Below are positions 2,956-54,569 of a stretch of DNA of 64,000 nucleotides, piece after piece (position 1 is the first letter of the stretch; each line of letters starts with the position of its first letter). The DNA lies in NCBI RefSeq assembly GCF_045037415.1, contig NZ_CP173438.1; one strand, written 5' to 3'. A program made the position numbers and the translations under genes. The notes below the pieces were generated by a model. The model ran no database searches and was not told the origin of the DNA. It was given only the letters and a program-made list of their open reading frames with translations. This DNA is from Escherichia coli. Lineage in GTDB: Bacteria > Pseudomonadota > Gammaproteobacteria > Enterobacterales > Enterobacteriaceae.

Positions 2956-3040
2956 TAGGTCGGATAAGACGCCCGGCGTCGCATCCGACAATGTGCAGAC
3001 GTTGATGCCGGATGCGGTGCAAGCACCTTATCCGGCCTAC
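2956..3040. repeat. REP element pair between phnD and phnE
   Basis: GTAGGTCGGATAAGACGCCCGGCGTCGCATCCGACA and TGCCGGATGCGGTGCAAGCACCTTATCCGGCCTAC palindromes. Confidence 0.8.
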
Positions 3041-26623: not shown

Positions 26624-26630
26624 AATGTCT

Positions 26631-26665
26631 ACCGCGTGATGGCTGTCACGCGGTATTTCGTTTCG
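26631..26665 (+). terminator. Intrinsic terminator after mdtP
   Basis: ACCGCGTGA-tggctg-TCACGCGGT hairpin followed by a T-rich tract. Confidence 0.7.
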
Positions 26666-26752: not shown

Positions 26753-26769
26753 GTGGCATAAAAGATGCA
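26753..26769 (+). promoter_or_regulatory. Sigma-54 (-24/-12) promoter of fdhF
   Basis: TGGCATAAAAGATGCA: GG and GC dinucleotides at the correct -24/-12 spacing, about 55 bp upstream of the fdhF ATG. Confidence 0.7.
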
Positions 26770-26820: not shown

Positions 26821-28968
26821 ATGAAAAAAGTCGTCACGGTTTGCCCCTATTGCGCATCAGGTTGCAAAATCAACCTGGTCGTCGATAACGGCAAAATCGT
26901 CCGGGCGGAGGCAGCGCAGGGGAAAACCAACCAGGGTACCCTGTGTCTGAAGGGTTATTATGGCTGGGACTTCATTAACGATACCCAGATCCTGACCCCG
27001 CGCCTGAAAACCCCCATGATCCGTCGCCAGCGTGGCGGCAAACTCGAACCTGTTTCCTGGGATGAGGCACTGAATTACGTTGCCGAGCGCCTGAGCGCCA
27101 TCAAAGAGAAGTACGGTCCGGATGCCATCCAGACGACCGGCTCCTCGCGCGGTACGGGTAACGAAACCAACTATGTAATGCAAAAATTTGCGCGCGCCGT
27201 TATTGGTACCAATAACGTTGACTGCTGCGCTCGTGTCTGACACGGCCCATCGGTTGCAGGTCTGCACCAATCGGTCGGTAATGGCGCAATGAGCAATGCT
27301 ATTAACGAAATTGATAATACCGATTTAGTGTTCGTTTTCGGGTATAACCCGGCGGATTCCCACCCAATCGTGGCGAATCACGTAATTAACGCTAAACGTA
27401 ACGGGGCGAAAATTATCGTCTGCGATCCGCGCAAAATTGAAACCGCGCGCATTGCTGACATGCACATTGCACTGAAAAACGGCTCGAACATCGCGCTGTT
27501 GAATGCGATGGGCCATGTCATTATTGAAGAAAATCTGTACGACAAAGCGTTCGTCGCTTCCCGTACAGAAGGCTTTGAAGAGTATCGTAAAATCGTTGAA
27601 GGCTACACGCCGGAGTCGGTTGAAGATATCACCGGCGTCAGCGCCAGTGAGATTCGTCAGGCGGCGCGGATGTATGCCCAGGCAGAAAGCGCCGCCATCC
27701 TGTGGGGCATGGGGGTAACCCAGTTCTATCAGGGCGTGGAAACCGTGCGTTCTCTGACCAGCCTCGCGATGCTGACCGGTAACCTCGGTAAGCCACATGC
27801 GGGTGTAAACCCGGTTCGTGGTCAGAACAACGTGCAGGGTGCCTGCGATATGGGCGCGCTGCCGGATACGTATCCGGGCTATCAGTACGTGAAAGATCCG
27901 GCTAACCGCGAGAAATTTGCCAAAGCCTGGGGCGTAGAGAGCCTGCCAGCGCATACCGGTTATCGTATCAGCGAGCTGCCGCACCGCGTGGCGCATGGTG
28001 AAGTGAGAGCGGCGTACATTATGGGCGAAGATCCGCTGCAAACTGACGCGGAACTGTCGGCAGTACGTAAAGCCTTTGAAGATCTGGAACTGGTTATCGT
28101 TCAGGACATCTTTATGACCAAAACCGCGTCGGCGGCGGATGTCATTTTACCGTCAACGTCGTGGGGCGAGCATGAAGGCGTGTTTACTGCGGCTGACCGT
28201 GGCTTCCAGCGTTTCTTCAAGGCGGTTGAGCCGAAGTGGGATCTGAAAACGGACTGGCAAATCATCAGTGAAATTGCCACTCGTATGGGTTATCCGATGC
28301 ACTACAACAACACCCAGGAGATCTGGGATGAGTTGCGTCATCTGTGCCCGGATTTCTACGGTGCGACTTACGAGAAAATGGGCGAACTGGGCTTCATTCA
28401 GTGGCCTTGCCGCGATACTTCAGATGCCGATCAGGGGACTTCTTATCTGTTTAAAGAGAAGTTTGATACCCCGAACGGTCTGGCGCAGTTCTTCACCTGC
28501 GACTGGGTAGCGCCAATCGACAAACTCACCGACGAATACCCGATGGTACTGTCAACGGTGCGTGAAGTTGGTCACTACTCTTGCCGTTCGATGACCGGTA
28601 ACTGTGCGGCACTGGCGGCGCTGGCTGATGAACCTGGCTACGCACAAATCAATACCGAAGACGCCAAACGTCTGGGTATTGAAGATGAGGCATTGGTTTG
28701 GGTGCACTCGCGTAAAGGCAAAATTATCACCCGTGCGCAGGTCAGCGATCGTCCGAACAAAGGGGCGATTTACATGACCTACCAGTGGTGGATTGGTGCC
28801 TGTAACGAGCTGGTGACCGAAAACTTAAGCCCGATTACGAAAACGCCGGAATACAAATACTGCGCCGTGCGCGTCGAGCCGATCGCCGATCAGCGCGCCG
28901 CCGAGCAGTACGTGATTGACGAGTACAACAAGTTGAAAACTCGCCTGCGCGAAGCGGCACTGGCGTAA
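26821..28968 (+). CDS. fdhF: FdhF, formate dehydrogenase H, selenocysteine at codon 140 (715 aa)
   Basis: Two in-frame six-frame ORFs (26821-27240 and 27289-28968) separated only by TGA at 27238-27240; N-terminal Fe-S cysteines (CPYCASGC) and molybdopterin oxidoreductase body. Confidence 0.95.
27241..27285 (+). other. SECIS stem-loop directing selenocysteine insertion at the fdhF UGA
   Basis: CACGGCCCATCGGTTGCAGGTCTGCACCAATCGGTCGGTAATGGC immediately 3' of the in-frame TGA; matches the fdhF SECIS as recalled. Confidence 0.85.
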
Positions 28969-29021
28969 TACCGCTTAAACTCACGTTAAAAGCGGTGATA
29001 TTACCCAACGCCTTTGTATCA

Positions 29022-29057
29022 ATCCGGAAACGACTCTCTGTTTCCGGATTTTTTTAT
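29022..29057 (+). terminator. Intrinsic terminator after fdhF
   Basis: ATCCGGAAAC-gactctct-GTTTCCGGAT hairpin followed by TTTTTTTAT. Confidence 0.85.
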
Positions 29058-29342
29058 ACATACCTGCGCAGTCAAACCAGCCTATCCTGGTTATTAGCGA
29101 CGTCTTCTCGGTTGTTCTTCTATTCCAGTCACGATTGCAAATGAGAATTATCTTTACTCAATTCTCATCGCGGCCTAACGTAATAATACTTTACATTTGA
29201 TGAACCAAATTTCGGTAAGGTGAGAAATCATCGACCGTTTAACTCGTTCTATTAACGGGATATTTTGGCGCGATTAATGCAACAAAACCCCGTCTGATAG
29301 AATATTAATAACCTCAAAGTAATTTCAGGGATTGGGAAGCAT

Positions 29343-30911
29343 ATGATTAAAAAACTATTACCTTTACTGGTTTTAAGCACAATTTCCGCCACAACCGTTG
29401 CCGCTACACCGCCTAATACGTTGGTTGTAGCCCAGGGGCTGGATGATATTGTGAGCCTGGACCCGGCAGAAGCTAATGAACTCTCAAGTATTCAGACTGT
29501 ACCAAGTCTGTATCAACGCGTAGTGCAACCGGACCGTAATGATCCGACGAAAATTACTCCGATTCTGGCGGAAAGTTGGCAGGCTGACCCCGCAGCCAAA
29601 ACGCTAACCATAAAACTGAAAAGCGATGCGAAATTTGCCTCTGGTAATCCGGTACGCCCGGAAGATGTGATTTACTCTTATGTCCGGGCTGTCACACTGA
29701 ATAAATCCGGTGCGTTTATTCTCAATGTGCTGGGATGGCAGCCGGAAAATATCGCCAGCCAGTTGAAGAAAATCGATGACCATACCGTCCAGGTGCAATG
29801 GAGTGCCGACGTCAGCCCGGCTCTGGCACTGAATATTCTCTCCACACCAATCGCCTCAATTGTTGACGAGAAGCTGGTTGCGCCAAACGCCAAAAATAAC
29901 GACTTTGGTAATGAATGGCTGAAGATGCATTCCGCTGGCAGCGGCGCGTTTAAAATGCGTACTTACCAACCGCATCAGGCCATCGTGATGGAAGCCAACG
30001 CCAGCTCACCAACCGGCGCCCCGAAACTGAAAAGCGTCATCATCAAAAATGTTCCCGATCCGGCAACACGTCGCCTGCTGATCCAACAAGGTGATGCTGA
30101 TATGGCTCGTGATCTGGGAGCCGATCAAATCGATGCATTACAGGGTAAACCTGGCGTAAAAGTGATGAGCATTGCCTCCGCCGAACAGAACTACCTGGCC
30201 TTCAATACCGGTAACAAGGATAACCCGCTGATGAGTAATCCTGCGTTCTGGGAGGCCGCTCGCTGGTTGGTCGATTACGACGGCATCACCAAAAATCTCT
30301 TAAAAGGACAATATTTTACCCATCAGAGTTTCCTGCCCGTGGGCTTTCCTGGAGCACTGGAAGAAACACCGTTTACCTTTAATCCAGCCAAAGCAAAAGA
30401 GATCCTCGCTAAAGCCGGAATCAAAGACCCGCACTTCACGCTTGATGTCGAAAATAAACCGCCATTTATTACCATCGCGCAGTCAATTCAGGCCAGCTTT
30501 GCTCAGGGCGGTGTAAAAGTTGATTTGCTGCCAGCCGCAGGGAGTCAGGTCTACTCTCGCGTTCGCGCCCACCAGCATCAGGGGGCCATTCGTATGTGGT
30601 TGCCTGATTATTTTGACGCACATTCCAACGCCAGCTCTTTCGCCTATAACGATGGCAAATCCAGCACCGTTGCCGGGTTAAACGGCTGGAAAATCCCGGA
30701 ACTGAACAAAGAAACGCTGGCGGCCATCGCTGAACCTGATAGCACTAAACGTCTTGATTTGTATAAGAAAATGCAACAAGAACTACAACGTAGTTCCCCG
30801 TATGTCTTTATTGATCAAGGCAAAACGCAAATTGTCATGCGTGATAATGTGCAGGGGTATCAACAAGGGTTGAATGCCGATATGGTCTGGTTTGATCAGG
30901 TAACCAAATAA
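29343..30911 (+). CDS. ABC transporter periplasmic substrate-binding protein, SBP family 5 (Opp/Dpp/Nik type), 522 aa
   Basis: ATG at 29343 after GGGAAG; signal peptide MIKKLLPLLVLSTISATTVAA; size typical of NikA/DppA-type binding proteins. Confidence 0.85.
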   Translation: MIKKLLPLLVLSTISATTVAATPPNTLVVAQGLDDIVSLDPAEANELSSIQTVPSLYQRVVQPDRNDPTKITPILAESWQADPAAKTLTIKLKSDAKFASGNPVRPEDVIYSYVRAVTLNKSGAFILNVLGWQPENIASQLKKIDDHTVQVQWSADVSPALALNILSTPIASIVDEKLVAPNAKNNDFGNEWLKMHSAGSGAFKMRTYQPHQAIVMEANASSPTGAPKLKSVIIKNVPDPATRRLLIQQGDADMARDLGADQIDALQGKPGVKVMSIASAEQNYLAFNTGNKDNPLMSNPAFWEAARWLVDYDGITKNLLKGQYFTHQSFLPVGFPGALEETPFTFNPAKAKEILAKAGIKDPHFTLDVENKPPFITIAQSIQASFAQGGVKVDLLPAAGSQVYSRVRAHQHQGAIRMWLPDYFDAHSNASSFAYNDGKSSTVAGLNGWKIPELNKETLAAIAEPDSTKRLDLYKKMQQELQRSSPYVFIDQGKTQIVMRDNVQGYQQGLNADMVWFDQVTK

Positions 30912-31010
30912 CCCTGTATGCAACTCGCGTCCAGCCATGTTACCGGGCGCGGTACCAGGGCTGGCCTGTATTGCAGGCCAGCCGCTGATTTATCACTGTA
31001 TGGAAAGATC

Positions 31011-32060
31011 ATGTCTGTCGTTTTTTCCACTCGCGCAAGATGGCGAGGCAAACGCCCTCTGCTCGCGCTGTTGCAAGGGCTGTTTACCGTTGCTCTGACG
31101 CTACTCGGCCTGCTGCTGATTACCTTTGCGCTTTCGGCTCTCTCACCGGTCGATCGCGTACTACAAATCGTTGGCGATCACGCCAGCCAGTCCACCTATG
31201 ATCAGGTACGCCACCAGTTAGGATTGGATCAGCCGTTAGCCGTCCAGTTCTGGCATTACCTGATGAATCTGGCACACGGCGATCTGGGCATCGCCAGCTC
31301 CACCGGGCAACCAGTACTCCAGGACTTGCTATCAGCATTCCCGGCGACCATTGAACTGGCAACGTTGGCGCTTATTGTCGGTGCTGTTGTCGGCGTCATT
31401 GCGGGTGTACTTTGCGCCCGTTATGTCGGTTCTCCGCTGGATTTCACCGTGCGAACATTAACTCTACTGGGAAATTCCGTCCCTGTTTTTTGGCTTGGTC
31501 TGCTGATGCTGGCGCTGTTCTACGCCAGACTGCAATGGAGTGCCGGGCCGGGCAGGCTGGATGATATTTATCAATTCACCATAGAACCCCGCAGCGGATT
31601 TGCGCTGATTGATACGTGGCTTTCTGGCGATCGCGAGGCATTTACCAATGCAATCAACCATTTGATACTTCCGGTTTTATTACTGGCGTACTTCTCGCTC
31701 GCCAGTATTACGCGCCTGACTCGTTCCGCCTGTCTTGGCGAAATGAATAAAGAATATATTCTGCTGGCGCGCGCCAAAGGGGCCAGCGAGATGACAATTT
31801 TGCTACGTCATGTTTTACCCAACATTCGCGGCACCTTGCTCACCGTTATCGCCCTCGCCTATACATCAATGCTGGAAGGCGCGGTACTGACAGAAACCGT
31901 CTTTTCATGGCCAGGTATTGGGCGCTACCTCACTACAGCGCTCTTCGCGGGTGATACCACAGCAATCATGGGAGGAACGCTGCTGATTGGCGTCTGCTTT
32001 GTGTTGATAAATAACTTAACCGACCTGCTGGTCCGGCTGACCGATCCGAGGTTACGCTGA
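31011..32060 (+). CDS. ABC transporter permease (DppB/NikB-like), about 349 aa
   Basis: Multi-TM; start at the in-frame ATG at 31011 after a hairpin (30976-30988); the six-frame ORF extends upstream to 30918, so the start is uncertain. Confidence 0.75.
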   Translation: MSVVFSTRARWRGKRPLLALLQGLFTVALTLLGLLLITFALSALSPVDRVLQIVGDHASQSTYDQVRHQLGLDQPLAVQFWHYLMNLAHGDLGIASSTGQPVLQDLLSAFPATIELATLALIVGAVVGVIAGVLCARYVGSPLDFTVRTLTLLGNSVPVFWLGLLMLALFYARLQWSAGPGRLDDIYQFTIEPRSGFALIDTWLSGDREAFTNAINHLILPVLLLAYFSLASITRLTRSACLGEMNKEYILLARAKGASEMTILLRHVLPNIRGTLLTVIALAYTSMLEGAVLTETVFSWPGIGRYLTTALFAGDTTAIMGGTLLIGVCFVLINNLTDLLVRLTDPRLR

Positions 32061-32893
32061 TGCCGATGTTTCTCTTTTTACGCCGTTTACGCCATTCACC
32101 CGCCGCGTTTTGCGGGTTGATAATTATCCTGTTATTGATGCTAATTGCGCTCTTCGCGCCGTGGCTGGCACCTCACGATCCTAACTGGCAGGATGCGGCG
32201 GCGCGATTACAAGCACCGAGTCGTCAGCACTGGCTCGGCACTGACAGTTACGGGCGAGACCTACTTTCACGTTTAATCTACGGCAGCCGCCCGGCACTGG
32301 GGCTGGTGGCATTGGTGACAATCATTACACTCCCGGTCGGTCTGCTGATTGGCATTTTAGCCGGGTACTACGGCGGCTGGCTGGAACGCGTGCTGATGCG
32401 TTTTACTGACATAGTAATGTCAATGCCGCGTTTAATTCTGGCTTTTGCTTTTGTTGCCATGCTGGGGCCGGGGCTGGTTAACGGCGCACTGGCCCTTGCA
32501 TTAACCACCTGGCCTGCTTATGCGCGTCAGGCACGGAGTGAGATCCAACGTCTGCGACACAGTGATTATCTTGCCGCCGCAGAAATGATGGGCATCCGCG
32601 GCAGGCGTCTGCTGGCTGGTCATATTTTGCCATTGTGCCTGCCATCTGCCATTGTCCGTCTGGCGCTGGATTTAGCGGGTATCATTCTGGCGGCTGCTGG
32701 TCTGGGTTTTCTTGGGCTTGGTGCTCGCCCGCCAATGGCGGAATGGGGAGCCATGATCGCCGACGGTATGCAGGTCATTTTTGATCAATGGTGGATTGCC
32801 GCCGCTCCCGGCGCAATTATCTTAATTGCCAGTCTGGCCTTTAATCTGCTGGGTGATGGCTTGCGCGATGTTCTGGAGCCTCAACATGACTGA
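32060..32893 (+). CDS. ABC transporter permease (DppC/NikC-like), 277 aa
   Basis: Multi-TM; start overlaps the previous stop. Confidence 0.85.
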   Translation: MPMFLFLRRLRHSPAAFCGLIIILLLMLIALFAPWLAPHDPNWQDAAARLQAPSRQHWLGTDSYGRDLLSRLIYGSRPALGLVALVTIITLPVGLLIGILAGYYGGWLERVLMRFTDIVMSMPRLILAFAFVAMLGPGLVNGALALALTTWPAYARQARSEIQRLRHSDYLAAAEMMGIRGRRLLAGHILPLCLPSAIVRLALDLAGIILAAAGLGFLGLGARPPMAEWGAMIADGMQVIFDQWWIAAAPGAIILIASLAFNLLGDGLRDVLEPQHD

Positions 32894-33722
32894 CTCACGT
32901 CTTAGTATCAACAATCTCTGCGTCGATTATCCGGAGTCCCGGGTCGTCAACAATGTCAGTTTTACATTAGGCAATGAACGTCTGGCGCTGGTCGGTGAGT
33001 CGGGTTCAGGTAAGTCCATGACCGCCCGCGCCCTGATGGGGCTGGTGCGTAAACCGGGTGTAGTAACCGCGGACACACTTAACATTCTGGGGCGTGATGC
33101 ACTCACCCTTAACGCGCGTGGATGGCAACAGTTGCGCGGTAACGATATCGCGATGGTATTGCAAGATCCGCGTTACGCGCTTAATCCAGTAAAGACAGTA
33201 AAAGCGCAACTGGAAGAGGCGCTTACGCTCCATCAACGTCTGAACCGCCGCGAGAAAGAAGAGAAAATAAACACCGCAATTCAGGCTGTCGGCCTCAATA
33301 CGCGAGTACTGCAAAGCTATCCTCGTGAACTTTCTGGCGGCATGGGGCAGCGAGTGATGATTGCAATTGCGCTCATCAACGATCCCCGGGTATTGATTGC
33401 CGATGAGCCAACATCAGCACTAGATGTGCGCCTGCGTAATCAGATTCTGGAACTGCTGGTTACCCAGTGTGAACAACGTCAGATGGCAATGTTGCTGATC
33501 AGTCACGACCTGCCATTAGTTGCCCAATTTTGCCATCGGGTGCTGGTGATGTATCAGGGAAATAAGGTGGATGAAATGCACGCTGCTGCGCTACCTACAG
33601 CAACGCATCCTTACACGCGCACACTGTGGACTTGCCGCCCAAATGCACAAACTTACGGGCAGATGCTGCCGACGCTGGACAGGACGGCAATGACGCCGGA
33701 GAAATACCATGACGATTGTTGA
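32886..33722 (+). CDS. ABC transporter ATP-binding protein (DppD/NikD-like), 278 aa
   Basis: ATG at 32886 overlapping the permease stop; Walker A GESGSGKS, signature LSGGMGQR, Walker B LIADEP. Confidence 0.85.
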   Translation: MTDSRLSINNLCVDYPESRVVNNVSFTLGNERLALVGESGSGKSMTARALMGLVRKPGVVTADTLNILGRDALTLNARGWQQLRGNDIAMVLQDPRYALNPVKTVKAQLEEALTLHQRLNRREKEEKINTAIQAVGLNTRVLQSYPRELSGGMGQRVMIAIALINDPRVLIADEPTSALDVRLRNQILELLVTQCEQRQMAMLLISHDLPLVAQFCHRVLVMYQGNKVDEMHAAALPTATHPYTRTLWTCRPNAQTYGQMLPTLDRTAMTPEKYHDDC

Positions 33723-34413
33723 AATTAATCACTTACAGGTGACTTTTGCTGAGAAAACCGCAGTTTCTGCCGCCAGTTTTTCGGTTAATGCCGGAGAGAC
33801 ATTTAGTTTAATTGGCGAATCAGGCTGCGGAAAATCCACGATTTTGCGCGTAATTGCTGGATTACAGCGCGACTGGCACGGTCAGGTGTCACTGTTTGGG
33901 CACACCATCAAACCAGGAATGCGTTTTCAGGGCGATCTCCGCCGCAATGTGCAAATGGTGTTTCAGGATCCCTATGCCTCGTTGCATCCCAATCATACTC
34001 TGTGGCGAACGCTGGCTGAACCACTCAAAATTCGTGGCGAAAGAGAAATAGAAAAACGCGTCCAGACTGCACTGGAACAGGTTGGCTTGCCTTTCGACGC
34101 CGCTCGTCGCTACCCACACCAGCTTTCCGGTGGTCAACGGCAACGTGTGGTTATTGCTCGCGCCCTGTTGTTACGACCACAACTTCTTCTGCTGGATGAA
34201 CCCACCTCGGCGTTGGATATGTCGGTACAAGCGGAAATCCTTAATTTGTTGAATCAACTTAAGCTGGAACACCAAATGACATATCTGCTGGTCAGTCACG
34301 ATGCCGATGTCATCGCGCATATGTCTGATCGAGCGGCATTGATGTCCGAGGGAAAAATTCAGCGATTTTTTGATCGCGACGCCATGGAAAAGGGGGAACA
34401 TCGGATGGATTAA
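33709..34413 (+). CDS. ABC transporter ATP-binding protein (DppF/NikE-like), 234 aa
   Basis: Walker A GESGCGKST, signature LSGGQRQR, Walker B LLLDEP; overlaps the previous gene. Confidence 0.85.
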   Translation: MTIVEINHLQVTFAEKTAVSAASFSVNAGETFSLIGESGCGKSTILRVIAGLQRDWHGQVSLFGHTIKPGMRFQGDLRRNVQMVFQDPYASLHPNHTLWRTLAEPLKIRGEREIEKRVQTALEQVGLPFDAARRYPHQLSGGQRQRVVIARALLLRPQLLLLDEPTSALDMSVQAEILNLLNQLKLEHQMTYLLVSHDADVIAHMSDRAALMSEGKIQRFFDRDAMEKGEHRMD

Positions 34414-34523
34414 AAAACCTGACATTGCATTAATTCATTCTGCTTTCAGGTCTTTTTACAGTTGTTTTTTTGTCCACCCGAACACTTTATACTGTCTCTC
34501 CCCTACCAAACTTCATTATCAAA

Positions 34524-35213
34524 ATGAAAAAAATTATCACTTTGATGTTGTTTTTGACATTCTTTGCCCACGCGAACGACTCCGAGCCTGGCAGCCAGTA
34601 TTTAAAGGCAGCAGAGGCCGGAAACCGACGCGCACAATATTTTCTTGCCGACAGCTGGTTTAGCTCCGGCGATTTGAGCAAAGCCGAATATTGGGCACAG
34701 AAAGCCGCCGACAGCGGTGATGCCGATGCCTGCGCGCTGTTGGCGCAGATCAAAATCACCAATCCGGTCAGTCTGGACTATCCACAAGCAAAAGTGCTTG
34801 CCGAGAAAGCAGCGCAAGCGGGCAGTAAAGAAGGTGAAGTAACGCTGGCGCATATTCTGGTAAATACGCAAGCGGGTAAACCGGATTATCCAAAGGCGAT
34901 TTCGCTGTTAGAAAACGCCTCGGAAGATCTGGAGAACGACTCTGCCGTCGATGCCCAAATGCTGCTTGGTTTGATTTACGCCAACGGCGTGGGCATTAAG
35001 GCCGACGATGACAAAGCAACCTGGTATTTCAAACGTAGCTCTGCGATTTCCCGAACCGGTTATTCCGAATACTGGGCGGGAATGATGTTCTTAAACGGTG
35101 AAGAGGGTTTTATCGAGAAGAATAAACAAAAGGCGCTGCACTGGTTGAATCTGAGCTGTATGGAAGGATTTGATACCGGTTGTGAAGAGTTTGAAAAATT
35201 AACTAACGGTTAA
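34524..35213 (+). CDS. yjcO: YjcO, Sel1-repeat secreted protein (229 aa)
   Basis: ATG at 34524 giving MKKIITLMLFLTFFAHA signal peptide and Sel1/TPR-like repeats. Confidence 0.88.
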   Translation: MKKIITLMLFLTFFAHANDSEPGSQYLKAAEAGNRRAQYFLADSWFSSGDLSKAEYWAQKAADSGDADACALLAQIKITNPVSLDYPQAKVLAEKAAQAGSKEGEVTLAHILVNTQAGKPDYPKAISLLENASEDLENDSAVDAQMLLGLIYANGVGIKADDDKATWYFKRSSAISRTGYSEYWAGMMFLNGEEGFIEKNKQKALHWLNLSCMEGFDTGCEEFEKLTNG

Positions 35214-35215
35214 GG

Positions 35216-35660
35216 TAGGCGCAGCAAACGTCGCATCAGGCATTGATGTCGGATGCGGCGTAAACGCCTTATCCGACCTACAAAAATCACGCCAAATCAG
35301 GCTATTGCGCTGTCTGACGTAGGCCTGATAAGACACGTCAGCATCGCATCAGACATTGATGCCGGATGCGGCGTAAACGCCTTATCCGACCTACAAAAAT
35401 CACGCCAAATCAGGCTATTGCGCTGTCTGGCGTAGGCCTGATAAGACGCGGCAAGCGTCGCATCAGGCGTTGATGTCGGATGCGGCGTAAACGCCTTATC
35501 CGACCTACAAAAATCACGCCAAATCAGGCTATTGCGCTGTCTGGCGTAGGCCTGATAAGACGCGTTAAGCGTCGCATCAGGCGTTGATGTCGGATGCGGC
35601 GTAAACGCCTTATCCGACCTACAAAAATCACGCTACATCAGGCTATTACTCAGTCAGGCA
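35216..35660. repeat. BIME/REP cluster: four tandem copies of a 114-124 bp composite REP unit
   Basis: GGATGCGGCGTAAACGCCTTATCCGACCTAC recurs at 35240, 35364, 35478 and 35592, each followed by GTAGGCCTGATAAGAC...GCGTCGCATCAG. Confidence 0.9.
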
Positions 35661-40064: not shown

Positions 40065-41021
40065 TTACGCCACCGTTAACTGCCCGGCGTAGAGAATGAA
40101 AAAGCGCAGCATCAACACGCCGACCAGGCTGGCCCCACATGCCGCCAGCACGGCAGGAATGCCGGAACTGCGATTGACCCACGGTTTGAGCAACATTGGC
40201 ACAATCAGCCCCAGCCCGGCGACACCAAGCCAGAACCACCACGTCCAGAAACCGCCGCCCAATGCCGCCACCAGCGCACGCACTTTACCGTCATCGCCCA
40301 GCGCCAGACCGACAAAAAACGCCACCAGCAGGAAGATTTCACCCCATACCACGGGGATTTCCATACGGTGTACAAAGTGCGCTTCCGTGGAATGCGGGTT
40401 ACTGCGTTGGCGTATCGCCATGGCGATCAGCGCCACCGCCGCACCGGACGAGATGCCGGAGAAGAGGAACAGCACCGGCAGGATCGGGTTATTGAGGAAC
40501 GGATACGATTTCAGCGCCGACAGCAGAAAGCCGGTATAAGCCCCCAACAACACCGCCAGCACCAGCATCAATGTTTCCAGTCCGCGATGAACGGGCGTCA
40601 GCAGGCTCAAGACCTTTTGCACGATCCCCAGCTTCGGCAACCAGCGTTGTTGCAGGGCAAGCAAATCATGTTCAAAGATTTTCGCCAGCCACAGCACCAG
40701 CACCACCATGTAAAGCTGAAACAGCATCACCCCCATCGACATCACCGAGGTAAAACTGTAGTGGAACATCAGCTTCCAGAAGGTCCACGGTCTTGTCAGG
40801 TGGAAGACGAGGATCAACAGACCGAGGATCACCGCGCCAGGCCCGACAATCAGCGTGGTGCGCAGCAACGTACTGTCTGCACCGCCTGCCTGCGGGTAGA
40901 AGCGACGTAACAGCACGGCCAGTGTCACCAGACCGGCAGAAATACCAATCAAAAACAGGTAGATGGCAATCGGCCAGTCCCACACCAGCGATTCAAAATG
41001 AAATGCGGAAGTCTGCGTCAT
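40065..41021 (-). CDS. nrfD: NrfD, membrane quinol-oxidising subunit (318 aa)
   Basis: Multi-TM NrfD/PsrC family. Confidence 0.92.
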   Translation of the reverse strand: MTQTSAFHFESLVWDWPIAIYLFLIGISAGLVTLAVLLRRFYPQAGGADSTLLRTTLIVGPGAVILGLLILVFHLTRPWTFWKLMFHYSFTSVMSMGVMLFQLYMVVLVLWLAKIFEHDLLALQQRWLPKLGIVQKVLSLLTPVHRGLETLMLVLAVLLGAYTGFLLSALKSYPFLNNPILPVLFLFSGISSGAAVALIAMAIRQRSNPHSTEAHFVHRMEIPVVWGEIFLLVAFFVGLALGDDGKVRALVAALGGGFWTWWFWLGVAGLGLIVPMLLKPWVNRSSGIPAVLAACGASLVGVLMLRFFILYAGQLTVA

Positions 41022-41690
41022 TGGCTCACCTCCCCGTATTTAAACGGTACGCGGTACAGCTTCGGTTTGGTGCCCAGCGCCAGCTTGTAGCGGTAAGTGG
41101 GCTTCTGGCGCAGCAGTTGCGAAATCTCACTGTTGGGATCGTCCAGATTGCCAAACGTCAGCGCCTTCGTCGGGCAAGCTTCAACGCACGCGGGCAGCTT
41201 ACCGGCCTGCAAATGGGTCTTACGGCAGAAATCGCATTTGTCCGCCGTCTTCGTGACCGGATGGATAAAGCGCACGCGGTACGGACAGGCGGCGATGCAG
41301 TACTGACAACCGACGCAGAGATCCGGATTAACATCGACAATCCCACTGGCAGCGTCGCGAAAAGACGCACCGGTCGGGCAGACGTCAACGCACGGCGCAT
41401 GATCGCAGTGCTGGCAAGACTTACGGAAGAAGCGATATTTCACATCAGGAAATTCGCCCTGCGGCTCGCTACGAATAATCGTCAGGCGCGAGACGCCTTC
41501 CGGCACCTTGTTCACTTTCCGACAAGCATCCATACAGGCGGTACAGCCGATGCATAACGACTCGTCATGCACCATGCCGTAACGCACCCCATTGATATTC
41601 AACGTTTTCGCCACCACGCGCCCTGCGGTGCCGCTGACGGCGGCCAGCACACCGACGCCGGTGAGAAACTGGCGACGAGAACCAGGTCAT
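41018..41690 (-). CDS. nrfC: NrfC, 4Fe-4S ferredoxin-type subunit with Tat signal; apparent +1 frameshift at codon 4 in this sequence
   Basis: Four CxxCxxCxxxCP clusters; the body frame encodes [20 protein letters not shown] but the ATG (41690-41688) is in a different frame; the span is 673 nt rather than a multiple of 3. Confidence 0.8.
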
Positions 41691-46093: not shown

Positions 46094-46207
46094 GTCGGAT
46101 GCGCTCCGACCTACATCTGGCAACGGCTGTAGGTCGGATAAGATGCGCCAGCATCGCATCCGACAACAAGCGCCGGATGCGGCGTGAATGCCTTATCCGG
46201 CCTACAT
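46094..46207. repeat. REP element cluster after acs
   Basis: GTCGGATGCGCTCCGACCTAC, GTAGGTCGGATAAGATGCGCCAGCATCGCATCCGAC and GCCGGATGCGGCGTGAATGCCTTATCCGGCCTAC. Confidence 0.85.
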
Positions 46208-53558: not shown

Positions 53559-54080
53559 AAGAAAACATCCCCTGAGAGTTTAATTTTCGTCAAGATGCGT
53601 GGCGGACAATCCCCTGCCAGCGAAACGTTATCTTCCTGCTCCAGGTTTGCGACAATTTGCTGCGTCGCAAAAAAAGCAAACGTTTAGCTCCGCGCATACA
53701 AAACGGGTGGTAAAAAAAGCAAACGATTATCCGGCGATCATAGCGGCTTTTTCAACCGAAGTTTGCTGCTTTTTTCTCTTTTATTGTCTTGACGATGAAA
53801 AACCAGGCAATTGATGCGCAAACGTTATCGTCGATGCGCAAGATTGCAGCGTTATCGAGCCGTATACCGTTCAGGATTGCGATAAAAAATCGTCTGAGAT
53901 GACAAAAATATTGCGGCTAAAAAGTGTACTTTTACACTGGCGAAGAAACGCCGGTAACATACAATTAAAGCATCAACACCAACCGGAACCTCCACCACGT
54001 GCTCGAATGAGGTGTGTTGACGTCGGGGGAAACCCTCCTGTGTACCAGCGGGATAGAGAGAAAGACAAAGACCGGAAAAC

Positions 54081-54111
54081 AAACTAAAGCGCCCTTGTGG
54101 CGCTTTAGTTT
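54081..54111. terminator. Hairpin at the 3' end of soxR
   Basis: AAACTAAAGCGCC-cttgt-GGCGCTTTAGTTT 13-bp stem overlapping the soxR stop codon. Confidence 0.6.
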
Positions 54112-54569
54112 TGTTCATCTTCCAGTAAGCGTGCGCCGGTACCTTCTTCTCCTAAGCGGTCGCCCGGGTTACGCAACGGGCAATCACTGCGCGAAAGGCA
54201 GCCACAACCAATACATCCATCCAGTTCGTCACGCAGCGCCACTAAGGTATGAATGCGCCGATCCAACTCTTCTCGCCATTGGGACGAAAGCTGTTTCCAC
54301 TCTTTCGCACTTAACGTATGCCCTTCTGGCAACACGCCAAACGCTTCACGAATGGTTGCGAGCGGAATGCCAATACGCTGAGCAATTTTGATAATTGCGA
54401 CATATCGCAACACATCACGTTTATATCGCCGCTGATTGCCGCTATTACGGATACTGGTAATCAACCCTTTGCTTTCATAGAAATGCAGCGCCGATACCGC
54501 CACACCGCTGCGTTTCGCCACTTCGCCGGGTGTTAGCAGCGCTTTAATGCGGGGTAATTTCTTTTCCAT
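54105..54569 (-). CDS. soxR: SoxR, MerR-family redox-sensing [2Fe-2S] transcriptional activator (154 aa)
   Basis: C-terminal [12 protein letters not shown] cluster motif; N-terminal MerR HTH. Confidence 0.96.

Follow-up and report, generated by a model that had tools for sequence, protein, structure and literature searches.

The fdhF locus and its flanking signals

The window (the whole stretch of E. coli DNA analysed in this study, 64,000 nt in length) carries on its plus strand the fdhF gene, which encodes formate dehydrogenase H (FDH-H), a molybdopterin selenoenzyme (26821–28968; 715 codons plus a stop codon). Translation in one frame, from the ATG at 26821 to the stop codon at 28966–28968, revealed that this frame is open apart from a single TGA, which forms codon 140 (27238–27240) when counted from the ATG. 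An earlier note on this DNA, made from the sequence alone, had placed an in-frame TGA at exactly this codon. As it had also pointed out, the TGA splits the gene into two pieces in the six-frame ORF list, and these were found in the same frame at 26821–27240 (139 aa) and 27289–28968 (559 aa).

Upstream of fdhF, pattern matching identified a sigma-54-type −24/−12 promoter-like motif, TGGCATAAAAGATGCA (26754–26769, plus strand), with its GG and GC spaced as in the consensus TGGCAC-N5-TTGCW. No sigma-70-like site was found in a consensus scan of the plus strand upstream of the gene. Two terminator-like sites, both predicted by consensus scanning only, are present at the locus: one after mdtP (26630–26655), and the other, a hairpin with a T-tract (29021–29060, plus strand), 53 nt after the fdhF stop codon. 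The occurrence of such sites after mdtP and after fdhF suggests that fdhF may be transcribed as a monocistronic unit. The gene is known to form a monocistronic, sigma-54/FhlA-dependent unit, and TGGCATAAAAGATGCA, the absence of a sigma-70-like site and the terminator-like hairpins would fit this organization, as judged from the sequence.

The product of fdhF

The read-through product of fdhF was aligned, with the TGA position masked, to E. coli FDH-H from the PDB (entries 1AA6, 1FDI, 1FDO, 2IV2 and 7Z0T, the last of which is the formate hydrogenlyase complex). The alignment, of a kind that the earlier note had suggested as a check, was end-to-end over 715 residues, of which 713 were identical. 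In the PDB chain (1AA6), the position aligned with the TGA is the non-standard residue X140, which is selenocysteine, and the next residue, His141, is conserved. The only two differences (K289E and A390V) are conservative allelic substitutions, neither of which is located near the selenocysteine insertion signal (SECIS). Four cysteine residues of the N-terminal 4Fe-4S site (Cys8, Cys11, Cys15 and Cys42) are present in the translation, as in the FDH-H structures 1AA6, 1FDO and 2IV2 and in 7Z0T.

Searches with protein family models gave a concordant picture. The product matched the NCBIfam equivalog TIGR01591 (formate dehydrogenase subunit alpha) with 1095.7 bits (cut-off 666.25), and Pfam analysis revealed the three-domain architecture of molybdopterin oxidoreductases, i.e. 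(i) Molybdop_Fe4S4 (PF04879, residues 1–54), (ii) Molybdopterin (PF00384, residues 61–487) and (iii) Molydop_binding (PF01568, residues 576–682). The naming of the gene as fdhF in the earlier note was thus borne out by the PDB alignment, the equivalog score and the 100% identity to annotated copies of the gene described below. FDH-H is the formate-oxidising subunit of the formate hydrogenlyase (FHL) complex, and Sec140 is the molybdenum ligand of the enzyme in the 1FDO and 1AA6 structures.

Distribution and annotation of fdhF in E. coli

The gene was detected in 5419 of the 5426 complete E. coli genomes. A 161-nt segment surrounding the recoding site showed at least 99% identity in 5415 of 5420 records. 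The segment 26700–29100 is 100% identical to the fdhF region of E. coli SK1144 and of many other strains. In SK1144 the RefSeq annotation contains one CDS with bounds corresponding exactly to 26821–28968, whose product is named 'formate dehydrogenase H subunit alpha, selenocysteine-containing'.

No tRNA genes, selC included, were found by a tRNA scan of the window; this was expected, since selC resides elsewhere on the chromosome. The genes selA, selB and selD are likewise located outside the window. The gene for tRNA-Sec (selC) is annotated in 5424 of the 5426 complete E. coli genomes, SK1144 among them.

If TGA is read as a stop codon, a gene caller will return fragments of 139 and 559 aa in place of the 715-aa selenoenzyme, at the risk that a functional component of formate hydrogenlyase is mislabelled as a pseudogene; the relevance of this point is limited to annotation hygiene. 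The earlier note had expected automated callers to truncate or split the gene, which holds for a naive ORF finder but not for the NCBI PGAP pipeline, since all RefSeq records examined carry fdhF as one CDS of 2148 nt.

The names given to the product are less uniform. Across E. coli RefSeq genomes (records H13 and H11/H15-H19) they are inconsistent, and the generic 'formate dehydrogenase subunit alpha' is also in use. One O157:H7 record calls the product 'formate dehydrogenase N subunit alpha', a name that is wrong for this locus. Among the matches obtained with the fdhF region, four fall on E. coli records typed as plasmids; these may be mis-typed replicons or large chromosomal segments carried by plasmids.

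The split ORFs might be taken to indicate that fdhF is a pseudogene, in which a nonsense mutation, the TGA, ends the protein after 139 residues and leaves the downstream ORF as a non-functional relic. Such an explanation would account for the two separate ORFs produced by a mechanical caller, and another gene of the same window, nrfC, is truly frameshifted. It would, however, require the mutation to have occurred exactly at the selenocysteine position of the crystallised enzyme and to be shared by essentially all E. coli genomes and by dozens of other genera. It also sits poorly with the RefSeq annotation of a complete selenoprotein CDS and with the state of the 575 codons following the TGA, which are intact and nearly identical to those of the functional K-12 enzyme. 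Because of the match to the Sec140 position, the cross-species conservation of the UGA and the intact downstream codons, we rejected the pseudogene explanation, which we consider extremely improbable, in favour of an intact selenoprotein gene.

Architecture and folding of the SECIS element

The earlier note had recognised a stem-loop matching the fdhF SECIS directly after the TGA, at 27238–27286. Our analysis led to the same element, and the coordinates given in the note are correct, with an error of at most one base at the 3' end. When the whole window was searched against all 4227 Rfam families, the SECIS_2 model (RF01988) matched positions 27233–27287 (plus strand) with 87.1 bits (gathering score 70; E-value 1.8e-17), covering all model positions (1–55 of 55). 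The model takes in the 5 bases upstream of the TGA, and in both the covariance model and the minimum free energy (MFE) fold these contribute to an outer 5-bp stem spanning the UGA. The 55-nt element is identical to the SECIS_2 consensus except at a variable outer-stem position.

In its published definition the fdhF SECIS comprises 40 nt, with an upper stem-loop (nt 15–31) placed 11 nt from the UGA (PMC8659212, citing Liu et al. 1998). This classical element, counted from the U of the UGA (+1 to +40), occupies positions 27238–27277 (plus strand). The spacer (nt 4–14; 27241–27251) has a length of 11 nt and is followed by the minimal upper stem-loop of 17 nt, GGUUGCAGGUCUGCACC, to which SelB binds (nt 15–31; 27252–27268, plus strand), which was located by an exact 17-mer match and has a single site in the window. 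The bases reported as critical are U17, G23 and U24, of which U17 and G23 are contacted by SelB (PMC8659212, citing Liu et al. 1998 and Fourmy et al. 2002), while the lower stem is reported to be less important (PMC8659212). All three are present: U17 at 27254, and G23 (27260) and U24 (27261) within the apical loop GGUC (27259–27262).

The element thus shares with the fdhF SECIS of E. coli K-12 (RF01988) the position of the UGA, the 11-nt spacer, the 17-nt upper stem-loop and the bases U17, G23 and U24. For the identical K-12 SECIS, both SelB binding and selenium-dependent read-through of the UGA have been demonstrated (PMC4513850, PMC8659212), and the efficiency of recoding in vivo is 30–40% (PMC4513850). 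Comparison with a K-12-like genome (L122) revealed 35 nucleotide differences across the whole gene, but none within 27233–27287. Even in the most divergent E. coli record examined, the element differs only at 27234, where an outer-stem U-G pair becomes C-G, and at 27282, which is unpaired in the model. The SECIS elements of E. coli fdnG and fdoG, like those of fdhF orthologues in other Gammaproteobacteria, should follow the same logic, in which SelB reads a hairpin that lies in frame after the UGA and carries G and U in its apical loop.

MFE folding of 27238–27290 and of 27233–27287 produced in each case an interrupted hairpin with a GGUC apical loop. The fold of the 53-nt segment had been put forward in the earlier note as a check; the expected hairpin was indeed obtained, but with a stability no better than that of shuffled sequences (−14.9 kcal/mol, z −0.05; 83 of 200 dinucleotide shuffles folded as well). 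The values for the 55-nt segment (−19.7 kcal/mol, z −1.23; 25 of 200 shuffles) and for a 42-nt segment (z −0.91) were likewise indistinguishable from shuffles. Folding energy is a weak test in this case, since any G+C-rich 50-mer folds about equally well, and the stability neither refutes the hairpin nor counts as evidence for it. Support beyond chance comes from the covariance-model score, the exact and unique 17-mer, and the cross-species conservation and covariation.

Conservation and covariation of the SECIS across species

For the comparative analysis, one genome per species was searched with a degenerate pattern for the codons Cys-Cys-Ala-Arg-Val-UGA-His-Gly. The pattern required the UGA itself and partly fixed columns 1–13 of the resulting alignment, but left the upper stem-loop unconstrained. 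One match (L092) was left out of the alignment because it was followed by unrelated sequence. The final set consisted of 46 distinct 55-nt sequences, that of the window included, derived from fdhF loci of Enterobacterales, Pasteurellaceae and a few metagenome-assembled genomes (MAGs).

Across these sequences, 92.2% of the cells of the SECIS pairing scheme were paired, compared with 22–47% when the 3' partners were slid by 1–3 columns. Two pairs of the upper stem showed compensatory exchanges: G-C was replaced by U-A at +15/+31 in 10 sequences, and U-A by A-U at +18/+29 in 11 sequences, with no sequence left unpaired at the latter. The two pairs account for 21 compensated cells, and the covariation score was reached by none of 500 shuffles. 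These exchanges alter the protein (His-Gln to Leu-Lys), which indicates that pairing in the RNA has been maintained at a cost to the peptide. The compensatory changes derive mostly from one clade, the Pasteurellaceae, whose fdhF SECIS is distinguished by them, and so may reflect few independent events.

Conservation was unevenly distributed over the element. U17, the entire apical loop and the two loop-closing pairs were invariant in all 46 sequences, so that the GGUC loop and U17 are common to the window and to fdhF orthologues of other Gammaproteobacteria. The lower stem was less well kept, its pair 17–39 being broken in 31 of the 46 sequences, which fits the minor role reported for this part of the element (PMC8659212). 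At the third-codon positions in and beside the loop (+21, +24 and +27), a single base was found throughout (46 of 46), whereas other synonymous sites (+12, +42 and +45) were free to vary, with two to four bases each.

These data bear on the possibility that the hairpin is an incidental by-product of the conserved peptide HGPSVAGLHQSVG in G+C-rich DNA, with the UGA decoded independently of any SECIS. A folding energy like that of shuffled sequences is what such an origin would predict, and since the peptide encoded by the hairpin is highly conserved across species, coding constraints by themselves would produce much of the nucleotide conservation. Coding does not, however, explain why the synonymous sites at +21, +24 and +27 are invariant while up to four bases occur at such sites elsewhere, or why compensatory stem changes have been accepted despite the amino-acid replacements that they entail. 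The collapse of the pairing when the partners are slid by 1–3 columns and a covariance-model score well over the threshold also speak against a by-product, as does the requirement for U17 and G23 established by published mutagenesis (PMC8659212). We therefore regard this alternative as very improbable and the hairpin as a genuine SECIS.

The alignment was also informative with respect to the bulge in the upper stem. The MFE and Rfam structures both bulge U18 instead of U17, which is an equivalent alternative in the E. coli sequence. The U18-bulged register was rejected, because its pair 22–34 breaks in 11 of the 46 sequences, whereas pair 23–34 is kept in all 46, with 11 compensatory cells. 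The covariation at +18/+29 therefore favours U17 over U18 as the probable bulged base, in agreement with the experimental literature.

In several lineages (Morganella/Proteus/Providencia, Edwardsiella and one MAG labelled Desulfovibrio) C+30 of the SECIS is replaced by G or A. For these variants (L012:1355–1396; L026:6889–6930, minus strand; L061:1593–1634), folding predicts either a continuous 6-bp upper stem with U17 paired, or a bulge at G16. The base U17 itself is invariant even here. It is conceivable, but in our opinion rather unlikely, that SelB has undergone lineage-specific co-adaptation to a differently shaped SECIS in the +30 variants. In some Pasteurellaceae (L043:10484–10525, L036, L072 and L080) an Ala to Thr replacement is accompanied by a change of G+19 to A, which faces C+28 in the upper stem. 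The SECIS of the L043 type is predicted to fold poorly (MFE −6 kcal/mol, z +1.2), and either the A-C mismatch is tolerated in these strains or recoding may be weaker there.

Selenocysteine recoding at UGA-140

We interpret the site as the selenocysteine recoding signal of E. coli fdhF, composed of UGA-140 and its SECIS, in an intact form (with a probability of about 97%). This interpretation is based on (i) the position of the UGA, (ii) the identity of the protein, (iii) the identity and architecture of the SECIS, (iv) its conservation and covariation, and (v) the tRNA-Sec annotated in the near-identical genome of SK1144. As the earlier note had recognised, the site represents known biology, the architecture of its SECIS having been published (PMC8659212). 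It is the textbook reference example of a bacterial SECIS, and there is nothing new at the site itself, whose presence tells us no more than that the gene for FDH-H has remained intact in this E. coli lineage.

The expected course of events at the site is as follows. Once UGA-140 occupies the ribosomal A site, the mRNA entrance would be the place of the 17-nt upper stem-loop, which follows 11 nt downstream. SelB, carrying GTP and Sec-tRNA(Sec), would be tethered to the SECIS loop via its C-terminal domain and, competing with release factor 2, would bring the tRNA(Sec), with its UCA anticodon, to the UGA. After selenocysteine insertion, the hairpin would be melted by the ribosome and read as His-Gly-Pro-Ser-Val-Ala-Gly-Leu-His-Gln-Ser-Val-Gly, so that one stretch of bases would act as an RNA signal and also encode protein. 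The inserted Sec140 would become a ligand of molybdenum in FDH-H within formate hydrogenlyase. Delivery by SelB, competition with release factor 2 and ligation of molybdenum by Sec140 have been established by prior work on the same sequence.

Other features of the window

The window is approximately 99.99% identical to the corresponding region of E. coli SK1144 (NZ_AP018784.2, from 4539324), one insertion sequence apart: SK1144 has, between acs and yjcH, a 1.43-kb copy of IS1397 that the window lacks (at approximately 46187). A REP/naRNA4-type element (46132–46202) lies at this empty site, and REP-type elements are a known kind of target for IS1397.

A single-nucleotide difference from SK1144 was observed in nrfC (41018–41690, minus strand), which encodes the Fe-S subunit of cytochrome c nitrite reductase. 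A 1-bp insertion near 41681, in codon 4, puts the sequence following Met-Thr-Trp out of frame. This allele recurs with 100% identity in several other complete E. coli genomes, in which PGAP marks nrfC as a pseudogene ('frameshifted'). The insertion is therefore not a read error but a real allele of the lineage. Judging from this allele, the lineage may lack a functional Nrf nitrite reductase.

The region downstream of fdhF is variable among E. coli strains. In K-12-like strains fdhF is directly followed by yjcO, whereas in the window the two genes are separated by a five-gene ABC transporter locus (29343–34413) encoding a substrate-binding protein, two permeases and two ATPases. At least 80% of the stretch 29000–34600 was found in only 1043 of the 5426 complete E. 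coli genomes, which identifies it as a strain-variable island.

Rfam searches also revealed six matches to naRNA4 (CssrE, REP-derived), at 404–481, 2958–3037, 35322–35391, 35435–35505, 35549–35619 and 46132–46202. Three of these copies form a tandem cluster between yjcO and gltP, and all six are ordinary E. coli REP/BIME repeats. The Hfq-binding small RNA sraL (RyjA) was detected at 53972–54112 (plus strand; 153 bits), in its usual place adjoining soxR.
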